Shown here: one piece after another, positions 12,001 through 21,000 of the stretch | Position numbering within the stretch: position 1 is the first letter of the stretch | Layout of the letters: the number at the start of each line of letters is the position of its first letter | Origin: Pedobacter sp. | GTDB taxonomy: Bacteria > Desulfobacterota > Desulfuromonadia > Desulfuromonadales > Syntrophotaleaceae | Length of the DNA: 64,000 nucleotides | NCBI GenBank assembly: GCA_050253415.1 | Contig: JBFWJC010000001.1 | Coordinates: forward strand, 1,384,679 to 1,448,678 | Reading direction: 5' to 3' | Program-made: the position numbers

Positions 12001-15000
12001 CTTTGTTGAGGCTAAAAATTTAATGTGCTCCCTAGGGATTGTCTCCAATGCCCTGCGGTAGGCGTTAAAAGTCTGAGGCTGGATCAAACCGTCATATGAG
12101 TCAATGCCATAGCTCTTTAGCGTTAAATCCCCGTGGTTTTGAAGCCACAGCCGGGTGTGCCTGAACTCTAAGGTGTCCATCCAGGCAATTTCGCAAGTCC
12201 ACAATTCTGAAACGGTATAGAGTAGGGGGACGCCCGTTTTGACCCCGGATTCAGTCAGGGCATCGAGAAATAATTGTTCATGATTGCCCCTCAGAAAAAC
12301 TGTTTGAGGGAATTGTTTTTGGAAATCGATCAAAAACTCGAGAACGCCCCGCGAATCGGGACCACGGTCAATGTAATCACCAAGAAAAACGAATTGGTCT
12401 TTTGGGCAGGGATTGATTTTGGCTATGAGGTTCTTGAGTTGATCAATGCAACCATGAATATCGCCCACTGCGATCACTCGCATATTGCATCTCCCGATTG
12501 CCAATGGTGTGCGCCGCTACTTAAGCAAGCGGACTTTTTCGGAAAGGTCTTCGAGGATAATGGCCGCCAGTTTCTCCATGCCCTCCGCACGGATGTGTAA
12601 TACCTCACCCTCTGTTTCTTTGCCACTTTTAGAATTTTCTGCCTTATAACGGTAAATATGTTTTCCCAACGTATCGTACCAACTACCGCTTTGGGGCCCG
12701 CAATTATGGCCATATACGTTCACAATTTCCTGATTGTTTATCGCAATCTTGATGGAAAAGGGCACTTTGAGGTCCTCCAAAAAATAGAATGATCTTTAGA
12801 ATCGGTGAAATCCAAAGTCACTCCAGGGAAGGTAATTTTTGGCGTCTATGGCTTTTTAGTAGGCCGTTCCTGGTCTGTAAAAGGACTCCCAGGTATGTTC
12901 AATCAAGGAGGCCATATCTTCCGCTGCAGGCGGTATGTAATCTGCCTCTGGGGCAGGGAACGGTAGCCAAAATAAGCATGTATCCAGACGAGGTCACATG
13001 CCGATTAGCCGATTTTTGCGCAATGGGCCGGTGAGCTTTTTGGGGCCGGTGTGGGTAAACTTCTGGTAGGTTGCGACCTCCTGTCGCCCCCAGGGGAGAA
13101 TATGCTCCTCGACCAACGGCTTTTCTGGCCTTGTCCTCTTGCCCATAACCCTATCAATAGAGGGTCCTGAAATCAAGGGTTAAAATTTAGGAAAGTATTG
13201 CAAAACCAAATACTTAGACTAACTATTTTGTTAGGCCGATAACCCGCTACTCCCCCTCCAAAAAAAATCGAATATCTCAAACGCCCTTGTGCAGATGTCC
13301 CAATAATGACAGATCCACCATCCAATAAGACTGCTCGCTCTCTTCACGTTGATTTTTCAAACTCGTTCACATTCTGGTTAATCATGCTGATGCCCCAATT
13401 GTTGTTTTTTTCCAGGATTGTCCATGGTGGTCATAATTATCTAATCGTTTCTTGGGGGAGGGTGGGGCGAAGGCTTTACTATCTTCCCTGAAAACTCACC
13501 TTAAAAGTACGGATCTATCCACCAAACAAAGGCTGCGGTATAGCAACACCGCCATAAATGGTTCGCCGAAGTTGGGTACCAACCGCTTGATTGAGAAGTA
13601 TTCCGAGTTGCTCCAACACCGGCTTCGCCTGCATCACGATCGTTGACAATCCGTTTCGCTTTTTTTCCACTGGGTCGGGGTTATTCCAGCGAAACACGAC
13701 CTCGCTGAGATACCGCGGCAAGTGGCGATGGCTGACAAAATGAAAGACGCCCTGCTTGGCCCTTTCGAGAATCGCATTGAAGGATTCGGCCGTGTTGACG
13801 TGAACTTTCCCTCGGGCAAATTCCTTGATGCCGTGGTGGACCCGCTCATGTCCCGCGAACTGTTTGCCGATCGCCACATAAGGTTGCAACTGGTCTGTCA
13901 TTATCCAAGAATCGGGCGCGACCACCTGTTTGACATAGGGTGCCAGGACCGCGTAGCTGTCACCCGGGATCATGCTGGCTTGGGCTGGGCCTTTGCGGCT
14001 AACGGCCACGTGGATACAGGCTTTCTTGGTGGATTTTCCCCGGGCATGTTTCACTCCCTGTTGGAACCTCGGTTTTCCTCCAAGGTATTTTTCGTCGAGT
14101 TCAACGATACCGTCCAGCAGTCCCAGGGAAACCGCATGCCCTGCCATCATGGCCCGAATGCCATGGCCAATTTTCCAGGCGGTCTTCTGAGTGACCCCAA
14201 GCCACTTGGCCAAGAAAACCGAAGAAACGCCTTTGCTGGAGTTGATCAGGAAATACATAGCCAGCAGCCAGGTCCGAAGCGGCAGCTTGGTACTATGCAT
14301 GGGCGTCTTTGTGGTCACTGTAAACTGCCCTTTGCAGCCGCTGCATTCATACAGTCCGGGCCAAGCAGAGGTTCCTGAGAGTGACCAGGACTTCAGGCAC
14401 CCACAGTGAGGACAGACCCGACCATGGGGCCAAACGACTTTCTCGAGATACTTCCGACAGGCCCCCTCGTTTGGAAACTGTTTGCGAAACTGTTTGAGAT
14501 TCATGGAAATCCCCCTTTCTGGAGGATATTCCATCAACACTGTGACGGGTTATGTCACAGCCACCTTCTTTTGGTGGATAGATCCGTAAAAGTATAAATT
14601 TGAAAAATATAAAAATTTGTATACCACATTTTTGTATAACCCTTTTTCGTGTATTTTCAGTAGCTTGAAAATTGGTAAAAACTTATATGCTTTTAGCATA
14701 ATTCTTTTTGGATAATAGAGCATTCTAATTTTTCGCCATCTGCTCAATTCTTCGAAGGCTTCCTAGGGCAGGGAAGGTGGGTAATCTGTGACTGGATCCC
14801 AGCTTATGCGGAGAAGTTAGGATTCAGATCCGAACTGGCAGTCTTGTAAATCAGGGGTTGTAAGAATGTTTGAAAAATATCCAGGTACCACTGGAGGAAC
14901 AATCTGAGACAAATAATAGGATAGCTCAAGAGTAAGCCGGGCGTATCTACGAAACTAGGGGCGATTCACTTTCATTTTCACACAAAAAAACAACCTCGTT

Positions 15001-18000: not shown

Positions 18001-21000
18001 TTTGCGGATTTCGGCTAAATCCCAAAATTTTAAAGGGTGTGGAGGGGTGATTATTGTCCCCGGTTTCAAAGGTATGTATATGGCGGGATGGCGAGTCCAT
18101 ATATCATGGTCTGGGAGTCTCAGAAATCTTCTAAAACTCCCATTGTCATCTGCCAGATATCGGGTTCCGTCTTTCGCTTTATAGAGATGGACTTTCTTGA
18201 CTTGGTCGCCAGGCGATACTATGGAGGTAATGTCTTTTACTTTGTAAAGGCGGTCCCAGTAGGCCCCGAACTCGTCAATGAAATCACGATGGTTTTTCCC
18301 GGAAATCCCGTCCATCACGACCTGTACGGACATGGAAATCGATTCGTGAGTTACCCCCTCAATGTCCTCGGAATTGAGAACAGTACCTTCTTCCTCTGCA
18401 TAGCAGACATATCCATCCGTTTCCACATGGGGCAAGATGCCGAAGGCATCCCATGGGACCAGATAGATATAAGGAAGAGAAAGTGGGAACGACTTCTTCA
18501 CGCCAAAATAGAAAGAAGTCGGAGCTCCGTTTATCTCGATTTCCAACTGGTAGCCGCGGCAAACAAGGCGGTCCTTGGCCCATGACTCAGACAGGCGCTT
18601 TGGGTGAATGTCCGCAACGGATCTGACCAGCGGACATTTCCCCAGCGCCTCTTTCAGCAAGGATTCATCGTAATCAAGCATGCGCAGATGCGCTCGCCGT
18701 GGCTATGGCGCGGCTCTTTTTTTCGCCGGTGTCTGGTTTTTCAGGAACAGGGAAGTCGTCCCCAAAGACCTTTCTCAGGGTTTCGCATGCCTTCACCGGG
18801 TCTACTTCACCGATTGCCGAGTCAAGAGCCTCCAGCAGACTTTCCAATTTCTCCTTCAGATTGGCCATCTGGTTGTCTGTCATCTTTTCGAACAATTCGG
18901 AATAGGGTTCGACTGGCAGGTACACCTTCAGTCTGTTTCCGAAGTTGTTCAGCATGCTGTTTACAACCCCTCGAATCGCTTGCAGGTCGTCGTACTTGCT
19001 CGTGTTCGCAACGGTATCCGTCGTCTTGTTTGGGGAAAACCATTCGTATACCGCGATGGTCAGGCCTATTCCGATAGGCGCGGCATTACCATTGGTAGAG
19101 AATTTGTGGTCCTTCCACCTTTTCAGATACCGTATCACCCTGACAAATTGCTTTTTGTCGTCGCCGGAATATCTGTTTCCAACAATGTCCGCCAATCCTT
19201 TAGGGTCTGATACTTCCCATGATTTATTGTTATCTGAAGAATTCAACTTTCCCTTTGCCAGACACTTCTTGCCGTCAGAGTTGCAAGACTCGTCGGAATA
19301 AATTGCAAGATCGACATGATACTGTGGTTCATCACCTTTCTGGTAAAAAACGGTTACACATGGCCTCCGCATGTCGACTTTTTTGGTATGGCCGTTCAAC
19401 GCTTCATACACCCATTTCTTGACTGCCACCGGGTCTGGATAGTCGTCTTTTGAGACATTGAAGGATACGCCGACATCAATATCATAATCACTGTCCAAAG
19501 GTATAACGCCGGTGCCCATTTTATAGCTTCCCTGGTCAAAAGTCTGGTACGTGGGAACCGGTTCATTCTTCTCCTCGAAAATCGCCTTCAGACGCGATTT
19601 TAGCTTATCAAGAACAATGTCCCTCTTTTCCCTTAGGGTCTGGTTCTCGTCGAATCGTTTGAGTTTAATTGCTTCATGAAAGGATTCGAAATGCTTTTGA
19701 ACGTCGGCCATACGACCTCCTTTTGGAAGTACAACATTTTGGGATGTTCCAGCAATATAGGTACGACATATTGTGTTGTCAAGAGAATGTTAAGATTTTT
19801 TTACGCCCACTGTTGATTGGCTGTGCATAGTTGCTGTTGCGTTACCCGACGTCTGAGAAGACACGAGTTTCAAAACACAGAAACCCAGCTCGGATCGCCA
19901 GGCGGGGTTTTCTCTTCCATGGGATAGTTATGTCCCTTGACCCGGTGCCTTTAAATGGGTGACACAGGGGGCTAGGAATGATCGGACATAACGAAATGGA
20001 ACCAAGACGACTGGTTTCAGGCATTTGCGATAGAATTTTTCGGCTAAAATGGTCGAAGCCTTTGCATCAGAGGAGGGTAGGGCGATGGCCAAATATGAAT
20101 CCAAACTTATACCCAAAGGCTAGGATTCGACAGATGGTCAAGCCCTGCCGGATGGTAGAATCCGGTTTAAAATGACCTCCTGAAAGAGAGCTAAAAAGTT
20201 GGCTCTGGCAGAGGTTCAGGTCGTATGGGAAGCGCCAATCACCAAAAGATTAAATTCAGACCATTAAATCCTACCCGCATTTCACCCTGCAAGAATGTAT
20301 TGAATCAGCCAATAGAAGATTTTTTCCGCTTACGGGTGATCGGGGGCCGCATAAGATTCGGCGCGAACTCAACCGCAATGGCTCCTGTTGTTCCTCCCGG
20401 CCCGGGGGATGAGCCCTCATCCACCAAAAAAGTCACTACACAGTCGGTCGCAGACTCTTTACTTCTGGCGCCAGGATTTTTTCAGTGCCTGGAGCGCTGC
20501 CTGTTCCTTGACTGATCGTTGAAGGTCATCTGTAGCCGACTGAAATGAAAGCAACAGGACGATGCAAAAATGGGGCGCCTCCGAAACCATCAACCAGTGG
20601 GGCGTTTTGGATTGCCAGTAGGACGGACAGTTTTAACGCCATCTACACTGACGACATAAACACCGATTGAGGCAAAAGTGCTACGGTGTGGACCGTCGTT
20701 ACTTCCAAACCGGGTGGGCATTGAGCAACGGCCAGCCATCGTCAAATCACGCAGTCGCTTCGGCGATTGGGAGGGCGGCTTGATGGTAGGTCCGGCAATC
20801 CGGTGCTCCTCGCTTCCCATGTGGAACGTAAAAAAACGCTACCAGAAGGTCTCGCTGCTTAAGAATTACAGGGCTGAAACTTTCAATACCGCAGTGATCC
20901 ATTTCTATCACCGATTGCCGGCAGCAATGCGATTGACGCTCATTGTAGGCCATAGTCGGTTGCAATTCTATTTTCTCAAGGAGGCGGATTTTATGCGAAT

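Follow-up and report, generated by a model that had tools for sequence, protein, structure and literature searches.

Why should a bacterial CBASS operon end with a gene related to Acb5, a family known as phage-encoded CBASS inhibitors? The question is raised by a locus in the 64,000-nucleotide stretch of Pedobacter sp. contig JBFWJC010000001.1 that was analyzed here (the window), the minus strand of which holds a series of five open reading frames in the order CD-NTase, Cap2, Cap3, Cap5, and a gene for a 95-aa protein. The genome-wide survey's note had described the last of these as a conserved fifth gene of type II CBASS, and we found the five frames, with the 11-nt gap after cap5, at the same coordinates. 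In window positions, the features are as follows.

19754..19782, minus strand: promoter-like site, TTGACA/17 nt/TATATT, matching the consensus at 11/12 positions, 43 nt upstream of the CD-NTase start
18674..19711, minus strand: CD-NTase, CdnB-like, 345 aa (PADLOC Cyclase, 2.7e-132; Pfam DncV-like_NTFase, 3.1e-14)
16945..18681, minus strand: Cap2, a fusion of E2 and E1 (ThiF), 578 aa (PADLOC E1-E2, 2.9e-164; Pfam Prok-E2_B, 2.3e-33, and ThiF, 8.9e-19)
16473..17009, minus strand: Cap3, JAB deconjugating peptidase, 178 aa as counted from the first TTG, the real start possibly lying further in (PADLOC JAB, 3.7e-52; Pfam Prok-JAB, 2.2e-15)
15246..16460, minus strand: Cap5, effector with HNH endonuclease and SAVED sensor, 404 aa (PADLOC endonuclease effector, 8.5e-119, and SAVED_HNH, 1.8e-110; Pfam SAVED, 5.9e-42)
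15235..15245, minus strand: cap5/small-gene spacer, 11 nt, with a Shine-Dalgarno-like AGGAAGG, read directly, that spans the cap5 stop codon
14947..15234, minus strand: Acb5-like gene, 95 aa, ATG start, H-x3-H subtype, with conserved R12, W40, H70, and H74
14880..14895, minus strand: weak terminator-like hairpin with a T-rich tail, 52 nt past the Acb5-like stop (5 pairs, 3 of them G-C)

The four upstream genes, clustered on one strand, make up the type II CBASS set: a CD-NTase, Cap2 (E1/E2), Cap3 (JAB), and an effector that senses the signal. The PADLOC names given earlier (Cyclase, E1-E2, JAB, and SAVED-HNH) returned with E values from 3.7e-52 to 2.9e-164, and Pfam agrees with them. The cap2 and CD-NTase genes share an overlap of 8 nt, and Cap5 matches the PDB entries 8ysq (5.2e-93) and AsCap5 7RWK (3.3e-53). 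Promoter-like sites occur in the region about as often as expected (8 found versus 8.1), so the site at 19754..19782 is weak by itself, and the hairpin at 14880..14895 is suggestive only, given 11 terminator-like sites versus 6.1 expected. Transposase genes surround the operon: IS1595, an IS3-like gene pair, and Tn7-like tnsA/C/D.

The family assignment of the 95-aa protein was examined from several sides. All 120 listed relatives, of 241 found, bear the precomputed label PF26761.1, as had been noted before. The protein had no Pfam match in a Pfam version that contains no PF26761 model, and we found no paper mentioning that accession. Membership is instead established through homology to the homologues listed in the founding preprint, which upholds the earlier assignment to Acb5. 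A tblastn search with the 95-aa protein matched 99 Streptomyces phage records, and two of the matches, NootNoot gp114 and SF3 gp590, are identical in every residue to entries in the Acb5 homologue Table S5 (bioRxiv 10.1101/2025.07.12.664507). NootNoot gp114 aligns with the 95-aa protein at a BLASTP E value of 5e-15, PHROG 7499 matches it at 6.2e-14, and an hhalign comparison of 61 CBASS-type with 8 viral sequences gave 99.5% with an E value of 2.6e-22 over 76 columns. Judged by these alignments, the kinship of the 95-aa protein with phage Acb5 is genuine. Because its gene lies on the chromosome, as the final cistron of a CBASS operon, the protein is an Acb5 homologue but does not fit the literal meaning of that name, a phage protein that inhibits CBASS.

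The available text of the preprint reports that Acb5A depends on R10, W38, and H61 (bioRxiv 10.1101/2025.07.12.664507, also PMC12265669), and by alignment the 95-aa protein possesses all three. R12, W40, H70, and H74 are invariant in 61/61 CBASS-type sequences; the Arg, the Trp, and both His are likewise invariant in all 8 viral members, the HGH pair of which aligns with the H-x3-H pair. By this alignment, H74 most likely corresponds to Acb5A H61, and H70 to H59. The monomer model (pLDDT 79.2, pTM 0.69) had no match among PDB folds at E ≤ 0.001, and its closest fold matches, all uncharacterized, are encoded by Streptomyces phages and a Haloarcula virus (E 1e-5 to 5e-5, TM 0.64 to 0.72), host groups also named in the Acb5 preprint (PMC12265669). 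A four-copy model reached an ipSAE of 0.85, the prediction model's own confidence, compared with 0.00 for the best of three controls; among proteins of solved structure, 20 of 30 same-chain pairs attain this mark, compared with 1 of 23 single chains. The four-copy runs share at least 82% of their contacts, with partner pLDDT of at least 78, and the model contains two distinct interfaces, as in a dimer of dimers. The Acb5 family is described as homotetrameric with pockets at the protomer interfaces (PMC12265669). The 95-aa protein is probably, on the basis of these models, a small, beta-rich homotetramer whose pockets bear the Arg, a stacking Trp, and the His pair.

Is the gene a part of the operon, or a phage gene that landed there by chance? 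We rederived 37 loci from species genomes by tblastn, picking them by peptide patterns of this subfamily and hence with the same bias as in the earlier survey. In 29 of the 37, cap5 is immediately upstream on the same strand, a count that says nothing about the share of such operons carrying the gene because the loci were found via the small gene itself. One further locus has the permuted order cap3, small gene, HNH-SAVED (L030), and seven have no CBASS gene. This independent count agrees with the linkage reported earlier (29 of 34). The same note had the order fixed wherever the contig reaches, which holds for 21 of the 29 cap5-linked loci, where Cap3, Cap2, and the CD-NTase are also present in that order, while seven others end at a contig edge upstream; in the eighth, L034, the Cap5 match spans only residues 76 to 400 and no Cap3 match lies in the 1.35 kb upstream. 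Record titles and tree labels place the loci in Thermodesulfobacteriota, Gemmatimonadota, Chloroflexota/Thermomicrobiota, Acidobacteriota, Bacteroidota, Cyanobacteriota, and Deinococcota, so that the seven phyla claimed before were recovered. Among 79 metagenome Cap5 loci, 8 carry the small gene, seven of them with Cap3 directly upstream and one (L052) starting inside cap5.

The junctions are similarly tight. In each of the 33 loci whose start could be assigned, the small gene overlaps cap5 or follows it within 24 nt, two negative values being doubtful; the median gap is 2 nt, and 13 loci show a 4- or 8-nt overlap. Pairwise distances of the small gene correlate (Pearson) at 0.77 to 0.78 with those of the CD-NTase, Cap2, and Cap3, which equals the level among those three, and at 0.62 with those of Cap5; Mantel tests, for the CD-NTase and Cap5 only, gave 0/2000 permutations each. 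The small gene is also the best conserved of the five (mean p-distance of 0.42 versus 0.51 to 0.63 for the other four), and no conserved gene follows it in 30 loci, so that it closes the conserved block. Overlap or short gap, codivergence, conservation, and block end together support a host-encoded operon component rather than a stray phage gene, as had been proposed.

The association has clear boundaries. The CD-NTase matches 8ysc/8ysd (E 4.9e-101), 7LJO (CdnB; 1.7e-23), and 9WOO (VcCdnG; 0.0025), its nearest named solved relative being CdnB 7LJO, and it scores 134.8 bits against the NCBIfam model "CBASS cGAMP synthase," under the cutoff of 150. The CBASS link of the small gene is confined to this one CdnB-like lineage and, within the Acb5 family, to the H-x3-H subtype; among the bacterial genomes sampled, no copy of the phage-like HGH subtype turned up next to Cap5 or Cap3. 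The idea of a conserved fifth gene of type II CBASS therefore stands for this lineage and subtype but not for type II CBASS in general. Even here the gene is dispensable, because close operon relatives lack it. It is missing from three operons of the same CD-NTase lineage (L082, L072, and L089), the first of which has a 56% identical CD-NTase and is followed by 2.7 kb of other genes, and likewise from L074 and L084, which are two-gene relatives. Conversely, the H-x3-H subtype stands alone beside housekeeping genes at five loci (L017, L024, L026, L029, and L037) and occurs on phage-like contigs (L125 to L127), and so is not tied to CBASS by necessity.

What, then, might the protein do? We propose, with a probability of roughly 0.55, that this operon-encoded Acb5-like nuclease cleaves the signal of its own CdnB-like CD-NTase and thereby brakes CBASS. 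We found no published description of an Acb5-like gene inside a CBASS operon. From the homology, residues, predicted oligomer, operon membership, and codivergence described above, we infer catalysis, substrate, and effect on immunity as follows. The five genes would be read from one transcript, with the last translationally coupled to cap5. The protein's substrate would be the cyclic dinucleotide that this CD-NTase produces, and cleavage, if it resembles that by Acb5A, would be a metal-independent transesterification leaving 2',3'-cyclic phosphate ends; a single cut would be enough to inactivate the signal. Steady, modest degradation could clear basal or stray signal, so that Cap5 would fire only if synthesis exceeded degradation; the nuclease would thus set a threshold or act as a noise filter, and the system could reset once infection had been stopped.

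The chemistry of the signal bears directly on this proposal. Acb5A, the only member for which activity is reported in the available text, cleaves 3'3'-cGAMP to 2',3'-cAMP and 2',3'-cGMP and acts less well on 3'3'-cUA (PMC12265669). The nearest characterized Cap5 proteins, AsCap5, LlCap5, PsCap5, and VcCap5, are reported to be activated by 3'2'-linked dinucleotides (PMC8568899, PMC12804361, PMC12141522), and Acb5-type chemistry may be unable to cut a 2'-5' bond. This mismatch between 3'2' ligands and 3'3' substrates counts against the brake. It would be accommodated if the protein were a specificity filter, cleaving noncognate 3'3' dinucleotides (such as c-di-AMP, c-di-GMP, or 3'3'-cGAMP) that housekeeping pathways or further CBASS systems produce and sparing a 3'2'-linked cognate signal, which would insulate Cap5 from cross talk. 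The description of VcCap5 as sensitive to several ligands fits such a role, as does the stand-alone H-x3-H copy in L024, where a diadenylate cyclase (DAC) gene lies two genes away. However, the CD-NTase is CdnB-like and not CdnG-like by its match to 7LJO over 9WOO, so a 3'2' product is not established, and codivergence with the CD-NTase is explained no less well by recognition of the cognate product. We regard this filter as unlikely.

Cleavage itself might be dispensable. The Acb5 family came from a screen built for sponge-like pocket proteins (PMC12265669), and a tetramer binding the signal or Cap5 without turnover would be a host sponge setting a stoichiometric threshold, for which translational coupling to cap5 would supply a fixed protein ratio. 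The His pair, however, is invariant in 61/61 sequences, a pattern more typical of catalysis than of binding; the correlation with Cap5 (0.62) is below that with the other three genes; and at L019, L021, and L030 the small gene is flanked by a replaced or a duplicated effector. We consider a noncatalytic buffer or Cap5 partner improbable.

The position as last, coupled cistron and the strong conservation would also suit a labile brake that serves as infection sensor. In such a scheme the signal would be made constantly, and phage shutoff of host expression, or inhibition of the nuclease, would let it rise until Cap5 fired. Toxin-antitoxin modules and decoy-nucleotide systems follow a comparable guard-type logic, and guards based on nucleotide turnover, such as Panoptes, reportedly exist. 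Yet same-lineage operons such as L082 function, or are at least maintained, in the absence of the small gene, and type II CBASS already controls its CD-NTase via Cap2 and Cap3, which makes a sensor of this kind very improbable. Still harder to credit is a mobile five-gene block whose nuclease disarms a resident cGAMP-type CBASS of a new host rather than acting on its own operon: the transposases around the operon, the H-x3-H copies on phage-like contigs, and a 90% identical copy adjoining TraH/TraF (L006) would fit, but the 3'-terminal 45 nt or so of cap5 persist in L006, which hence is an operon remnant, not an independent cargo gene, and the fixed site after cap5, the stop/start overlap, and codivergence with the CD-NTase, Cap2, and Cap3 across seven phyla are not expected of loose cargo.

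Built-in negative control has precedents. Cap3 of type II CBASS is an operon-encoded negative regulator whose target is the CD-NTase conjugate, a step before the signal is made. A second such regulator would be the Acb5-like protein, with the signal itself as its target. The ring nucleases of type III CRISPR-Cas are encoded with the defense system and degrade its cyclic nucleotide signal (cA3 to cA6), and one such family, Crn2/AcrIII-1, includes both a host regulator and a viral antidefense protein; ring nuclease products end in a 2',3'-cyclic phosphate. The resemblance is confined to role: searches for a ring nuclease relation (CARF, DUF1874, or Csx3-type fold; Crn1 to Crn3, Csx15) gave no Pfam, NCBIfam, PADLOC, or PDB sequence match and no PDB fold at E ≤ 0.001. 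The expected substrate here is a CBASS dinucleotide and not cA3 to cA6. Csx15, a CARF/SAVED-related, filament-forming host ring nuclease, is reported to degrade some CBASS nucleotides in vitro, with a physiological meaning that its authors call unclear (bioRxiv 10.64898/2026.10.26.761840). CBASS synthases are described there as "rarely adjacent" to csx15, in contrast to the tight linkage of the Acb5-like gene, and a term search of the paper's available text returned neither Acb5 nor Cap5.

The CdnG-Cap5 and other Cap5 systems, as far as described in the available texts (PMC8568899, PMC12804361, PMC12141522), share the effector architecture of HNH plus SAVED, but these comprise two genes with clade G cyclases, whereas here a CdnB-like cyclase is joined by Cap2, Cap3, and a fifth gene. 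The closest counterparts of that fifth gene are Acb5A and Acb5B (PMC12265669), homologous small proteins with which it shares the Arg, the Trp, the two His, the lack of a solved fold relative, and, as predicted for the 95-aa protein, an oligomer with two interfaces. They are phage encoded and carry H-G-H, whereas the 95-aa protein is bacterial, sits inside a CBASS operon, and carries H-x3-H-P and an extra loop (residues 43 to 56); its subtype motif FHTGQVV does not occur among the Table S5 sequences (bioRxiv 10.1101/2025.07.12.664507). If the brake reading is true, a CBASS defense carries its own brake on its alarm molecule, drawn from the very family that phages use to destroy that alarm.

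Five minus-strand ORFs lie head to tail in the window and form a CBASS operon, of type II, whose last gene encodes a 95-aa Acb5-like product of the H-x3-H subtype (hereafter the small protein, encoded by the small gene). The operon and its neighbors are as follows.

18674-19711, minus strand: CD-NTase, 345 aa (PADLOC Cyclase, 2.7e-132; Pfam agrees)
16945-18681, minus strand: Cap2, 578 aa (PADLOC E1-E2, 2.9e-164; Pfam agrees)
16473-17009, minus strand: Cap3, 178 aa (PADLOC JAB, 3.7e-52; Pfam agrees)
15246-16460, minus strand: Cap5, 404 aa (PADLOC endonuclease effector, 8.5e-119, and SAVED_HNH, 1.8e-110; Pfam agrees)
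14947-15234, minus strand: small protein, 95 aa (ORF)
13515-14540: IS1595 transposase gene, after the operon
11731-12504: metallophosphoesterase (calcineurin-like) gene
9078-10636: pair of neighboring genes whose products have transposase and integrase-core (rve) domains
23515-29977: Tn7-like tnsA, tnsC-like (AAA protein) and tnsD genes, on the other side of the operon

The small protein gave zero matches in PADLOC, in NCBIfam and in the Pfam copy used, which is one without the PF26761 model. Its gene had been placed 11 nt behind cap5 on the same strand, and rereading the ORFs in the window returned the same arrangement, with the sequence AGGAAGG contained in the 11 nt between the cap5 stop and the small-gene ATG. 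By consensus match only, a promoter-like site lies 43 nt 5' of the CD-NTase start and, 52 nt past the small gene, a weak hairpin resembles a terminator. Four sequencing runs, two of them probably DNA, were aligned from a set of nine, of which eight are only guessed to be RNA and every one covers a small share of the stretch; the four yielded seven pieces of 80 to 249 nt, none of which spans the cap5/small-gene junction. The small gene and the cyclase gene are each present as a single copy in the genome. The GC content falls to 0.42 across cap5 and the small gene, which, together with the surrounding transposase and Tn7-like genes, indicates a mobile, island-like region. The gene pair at 9078-10636 looks like an IS3-type element, and the ORFs at 20225-22612 had no family match.

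In the preprint that defined it, Acb5 is a phage protein and predicted homotetramer that cuts 3'3'-cGAMP into 2',3'-cAMP and 2',3'-cGMP and that requires R10, W38, and H61 for activity (bioRxiv 10.1101/2025.07.12.664507; PMC12265669). The genome-wide survey's note assigned the small gene to this family, and several comparisons bear it out. By tblastn, 99 Streptomyces phage records match the small protein; the matched genes of NootNoot and SF3 have translations identical to the Table S5 sequences of those accessions (PMC12265669); BLASTP against the NootNoot protein gave an E value of 5e-15; and a profile of 61 CBASS-type sequences matched a profile of eight viral sequences over 76 columns (probability, 99.5%; E value, 2.6e-22). 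The precomputed label PF26761.1 is carried by all 120 listed relatives of the 241 found. Residues R12, W40, H70, and H74 are invariant in all 61 CBASS-type sequences. In the alignment of viral members, the viral "HGH" pair lines up with the "H-x3-H" pair, so that the small protein keeps both histidines, spaced by two additional residues. Homology and architecture as an Acb5 relative are well supported, and the activity itself is predicted from this sequence resemblance.

No solved sequence relative of the small protein was found (best E value, 0.88), and its AlphaFold model (pLDDT, 79.2) had no fold neighbor in the PDB at an E value of ≤0.001 with Foldseek. The five best BFVD neighbors are all uncharacterized; of the four that are named, three belong to Streptomyces phages and the fourth to a Haloarcula virus, host groups that are also named for Acb5 in its preprint (PMC12265669). 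Four copies of the small protein are predicted to assemble via two different interfaces (ipSAE, 0.85, versus 0.00 for the best of three controls; among proteins of solved structure, the ipSAE mark is attained by 20 of 30 same-chain pairs and 1 of 23 single-chain entries), with at least 82% contact agreement among oligomer runs and a partner pLDDT of at least 78. An editorial (PMC13728456) refers to Acb5 "homo-hexamers" and the preprint (PMC12265669) to a homotetramer. The search for fusions among longer proteins returned a single match, a 544-aa metagenome protein (P0129) that carries no more of the small protein than its first 37 residues, joined to a PF01555 DNA methylase; it looks like a gene disrupted by insertion, or a chimeric gene or assembly, rather than a domain fusion.

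The survey's note further held that the five-gene order recurs across phyla, and this stood when one genome per species was scanned and the neighbors were identified by tblastn. Among the resulting 37 loci with a small-gene relative, which span seven phyla, a same-strand Cap5 gene immediately precedes the relative in 29, and in 21 of these 29 the complete order of CD-NTase, Cap2, Cap3, and Cap5 is visible. The upstream part is lost at a contig end in seven of the remaining eight; the eighth (L034) has a partial Cap5 match (residues 76 to 400) and no Cap3 match in the 1.35 kb upstream. One further locus is permuted, with the small gene between cap3 and an HNH-SAVED gene (L030:8260-9480), and seven lack CBASS genes. 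An independent, stand-alone origin could be proposed for one of these seven (L006:1276-1606), in which a 90% identical copy adjoins TraH/TraF, but a stretch of approximately 45 nt from the 3' end of cap5 survives there, which rules out such an origin and marks the locus as a truncated operon remnant on a conjugative element.

The junction itself was measured in the 33 CBASS-linked loci in which a start could be assigned, consisting of 27 distinct genome loci and six of eight metagenome loci (L010, nearly a duplicate of L009, was omitted, and no start could be assigned in L124). The gap between cap5 and the small gene has a median of 2 nt, 13 of the 33 loci overlap by 4 or 8 nt, and the gap is never longer than 24 nt; two negative values are artifactual or doubtful (the true gap in L020 is approximately 15 nt, and the value of −29 in L048 is doubtful). 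Beyond the small gene, the 30 loci with at least 900 bp of downstream sequence share no common ORF family, except in two Hymenobacter genomes, which rules out a sixth conserved operon gene and indicates that the conserved block ends at the small gene. Individual operons carry further components: a second CD-NTase begins immediately after the small gene in one (L011:8322-8912), in another the small gene is followed by an additional, 602-aa SAVED protein (L019:5803-7608), and a third has two Cap5 genes (L021:2271-3425).

When the 21 loci with a full set of five genes are compared pairwise, distances between the small proteins are correlated with distances between the CD-NTase, Cap2, or Cap3 sequences (Pearson r = 0.78, 0.77, and 0.77), similar to the correlations of these three among themselves (Spearman, 0.76 to 0.78), and more weakly with those of Cap5 (0.62); Mantel tests for CD-NTase and for Cap5 gave 0 of 2000 permutations each, although such tests are inflated by host-genome relatedness. 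Since the operon spans seven phyla, the co-divergence signal mainly reflects joint transfer. Of the five proteins, the small one has diverged least (mean p-distance, 0.42 versus 0.51 to 0.63).

Viewed in reverse, from 79 metagenome loci encoding Cap5 relatives and scanned with the family HMM, the small gene is present in eight, each time directly after Cap5; Cap3 is directly upstream in seven of them, and the other (L052) begins inside cap5. It is absent from every metagenome locus that combines Cap5 with a distant cyclase. Three type II loci whose CD-NTase shares at least 44% identity and that extend 500 bp or more downstream are without it (L072, L082, and L089); the first is a close operon relative with an IS630-type transposase between cap3 and cap5 (L072:4560-5498), and housekeeping genes come next downstream in the second. 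A Cap5 query of a phylum sample, too small to be informative, found a relative in only 2 of 400 other genomes, neither of them a type II operon and neither with the small gene. In a CD-NTase tree of 30 rows, all 21 gene-bearing operons fall into one clade (100/100) of 27 rows, which also includes L089, L072/L082/L064, and the two-gene loci L074/L084; the small-gene label needs two changes on this tree, of which well-supported branches force only one. The window cyclase is CdnB-like by sequence comparison, with matches to 7LJO at 1.7e-23, to VcCdnG 9WOO at 0.0025, and, best of all, at 4.9e-101 to the unnamed 8YSC series. Among solved structures, 8YSC/8YSD come nearest to the cyclase and 8YSQ to Cap5, and no relevant paper was found for these PDB entries.

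How far the link extends within the family was addressed with a family-wide HMM run over sampled genomes of two phyla, with HGH copies checked in 1.5-kb flanks. In Deinococcota, 23 of 301 genomes had 34 matches (30 with loci), comprising 13 CBASS-linked copies, all H-x3-H, one stand-alone H-x3-H copy, and 16 HGH copies without Cap5 or Cap3. In Chloroflexota, 10 of 301 genomes had 12 matches: one CBASS-linked, one other H-x3-H copy at a contig end, and 10 HGH copies without Cap5 or Cap3 (nine without L172, whose genome is flagged unpublished). Three Deinococcota genomes (G657, G616, and G495; loci L149-L165) carry HGH-type homologs in up to four copies per genome, and no Cap5 or Cap3 match lies within the 1.5-kb flanks of these loci. 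One HGH copy adjoins a phage head-morphogenesis gene (L160) and another an RNase H gene (L152), which marks at least some HGH copies as prophage borne. The motif FHTGQVV is absent from the Acb5 homologs of Table S5 (PMC12265669, supplementary file 3), though one IMG/VR contig (L125) has it, which places the H-x3-H subtype outside the published set. Taken together, these samples and Table S5 indicate that the CBASS link is a property of one subtype, H-x3-H, in keeping with the earlier caveat that it holds for close relatives and not for all of PF26761.

The subtype also occurs outside CBASS operons. Three IMG/VR contigs (L125-L127) carry it with terminase, with tail genes, or with endonuclease VII and RNA ligase genes, and no CBASS gene lies within 6 kb. 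A stand-alone copy in three Salinibacter-like genomes (L026:7938-8336, L029:7380-8345, and L037, ~8001-8198) adjoins a glutamate dehydrogenase gene in a conserved position without defense genes, and another (L017) lies beside rpsP/KhpA/RimM. In one Trueperaceae genome, a stand-alone copy (L024:2608-2889, the same place as L136) lies between an M50-CBS peptidase gene and ftsH, and the next gene downstream encodes a DAC (diadenylate cyclase) domain, a setting that raises the possibility of an additional role for the subtype in housekeeping c-di-AMP turnover. A 52-row tree, from which four duplicates and one partial sequence were left out, unites all 35 CBASS, the six stand-alone, and these three viral copies in a single clade (93/98) that excludes the HGH-type phage proteins; on this unrooted tree of a short protein, the CBASS label requires three changes.

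The best-supported reading, to which we give a probability of roughly 55% on the basis of homology and genomic context, is that the small protein is an operon-encoded signal nuclease acting as a brake. Such a nuclease would impose a threshold, suppress noise, or return CBASS to its resting state. As to its substrate, the characterized Cap5 relatives AsCap5, LlCap5, PsCap5, and VcCap5 respond to 3'2'-linked dinucleotides, and the window Cap5 matches AsCap5 7RWK at 3.3e-53; the characterized phage protein Acb5A acts on 3'3' species according to the preprint (PMC12265669). A single cut at the 3'-5' bond would presumably still inactivate a 3'2' signal. We consider improbable a broader picture of a CBASS lineage that is reversible and thresholded rather than purely suicidal, with its own nuclease clearing the signal, in which host and virus would have exchanged a single enzyme, used by the phage as Acb5 and by the host as a regulator; in the boldest form of this picture, the brake would be labile and its loss during infection the trigger.

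Descriptions of CBASS usually present it as abortive and one-way. Should its function be confirmed, the small gene would represent the first dedicated built-in attenuator of CBASS, a signal-degrading enzyme fixed in the operon, and would explain how a constitutively expressed, Cap2-primed cyclase spares uninfected cells; one "anti-defense" family would simultaneously be a defense component. For annotation, a bacterial protein that matches an anti-CBASS family should not be taken to signal a prophage. The Acb5 passages of the papers searched, with the founding study covered in its preprint form, contain no mention of a bacterial operon copy; papers, as distinct from the Pfam entry text, yielded no mention of PF26761; and outside subscription journals no report was found that connects CBASS with a ring nuclease, signal-degradation, phosphodiesterase, or accessory gene of this kind. 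In an October 2026 preprint on Csx15, CBASS synthases are "rarely adjacent" to csx15 and the CBASS role is called unclear, and its abstract treats regulated signal degradation as a hallmark of type III CRISPR (bioRxiv 10.64898/2026.10.26.761840). The ring nucleases of type III CRISPR and the nuclease proposed here for CBASS would be alike in that each clears the signal of its own system.
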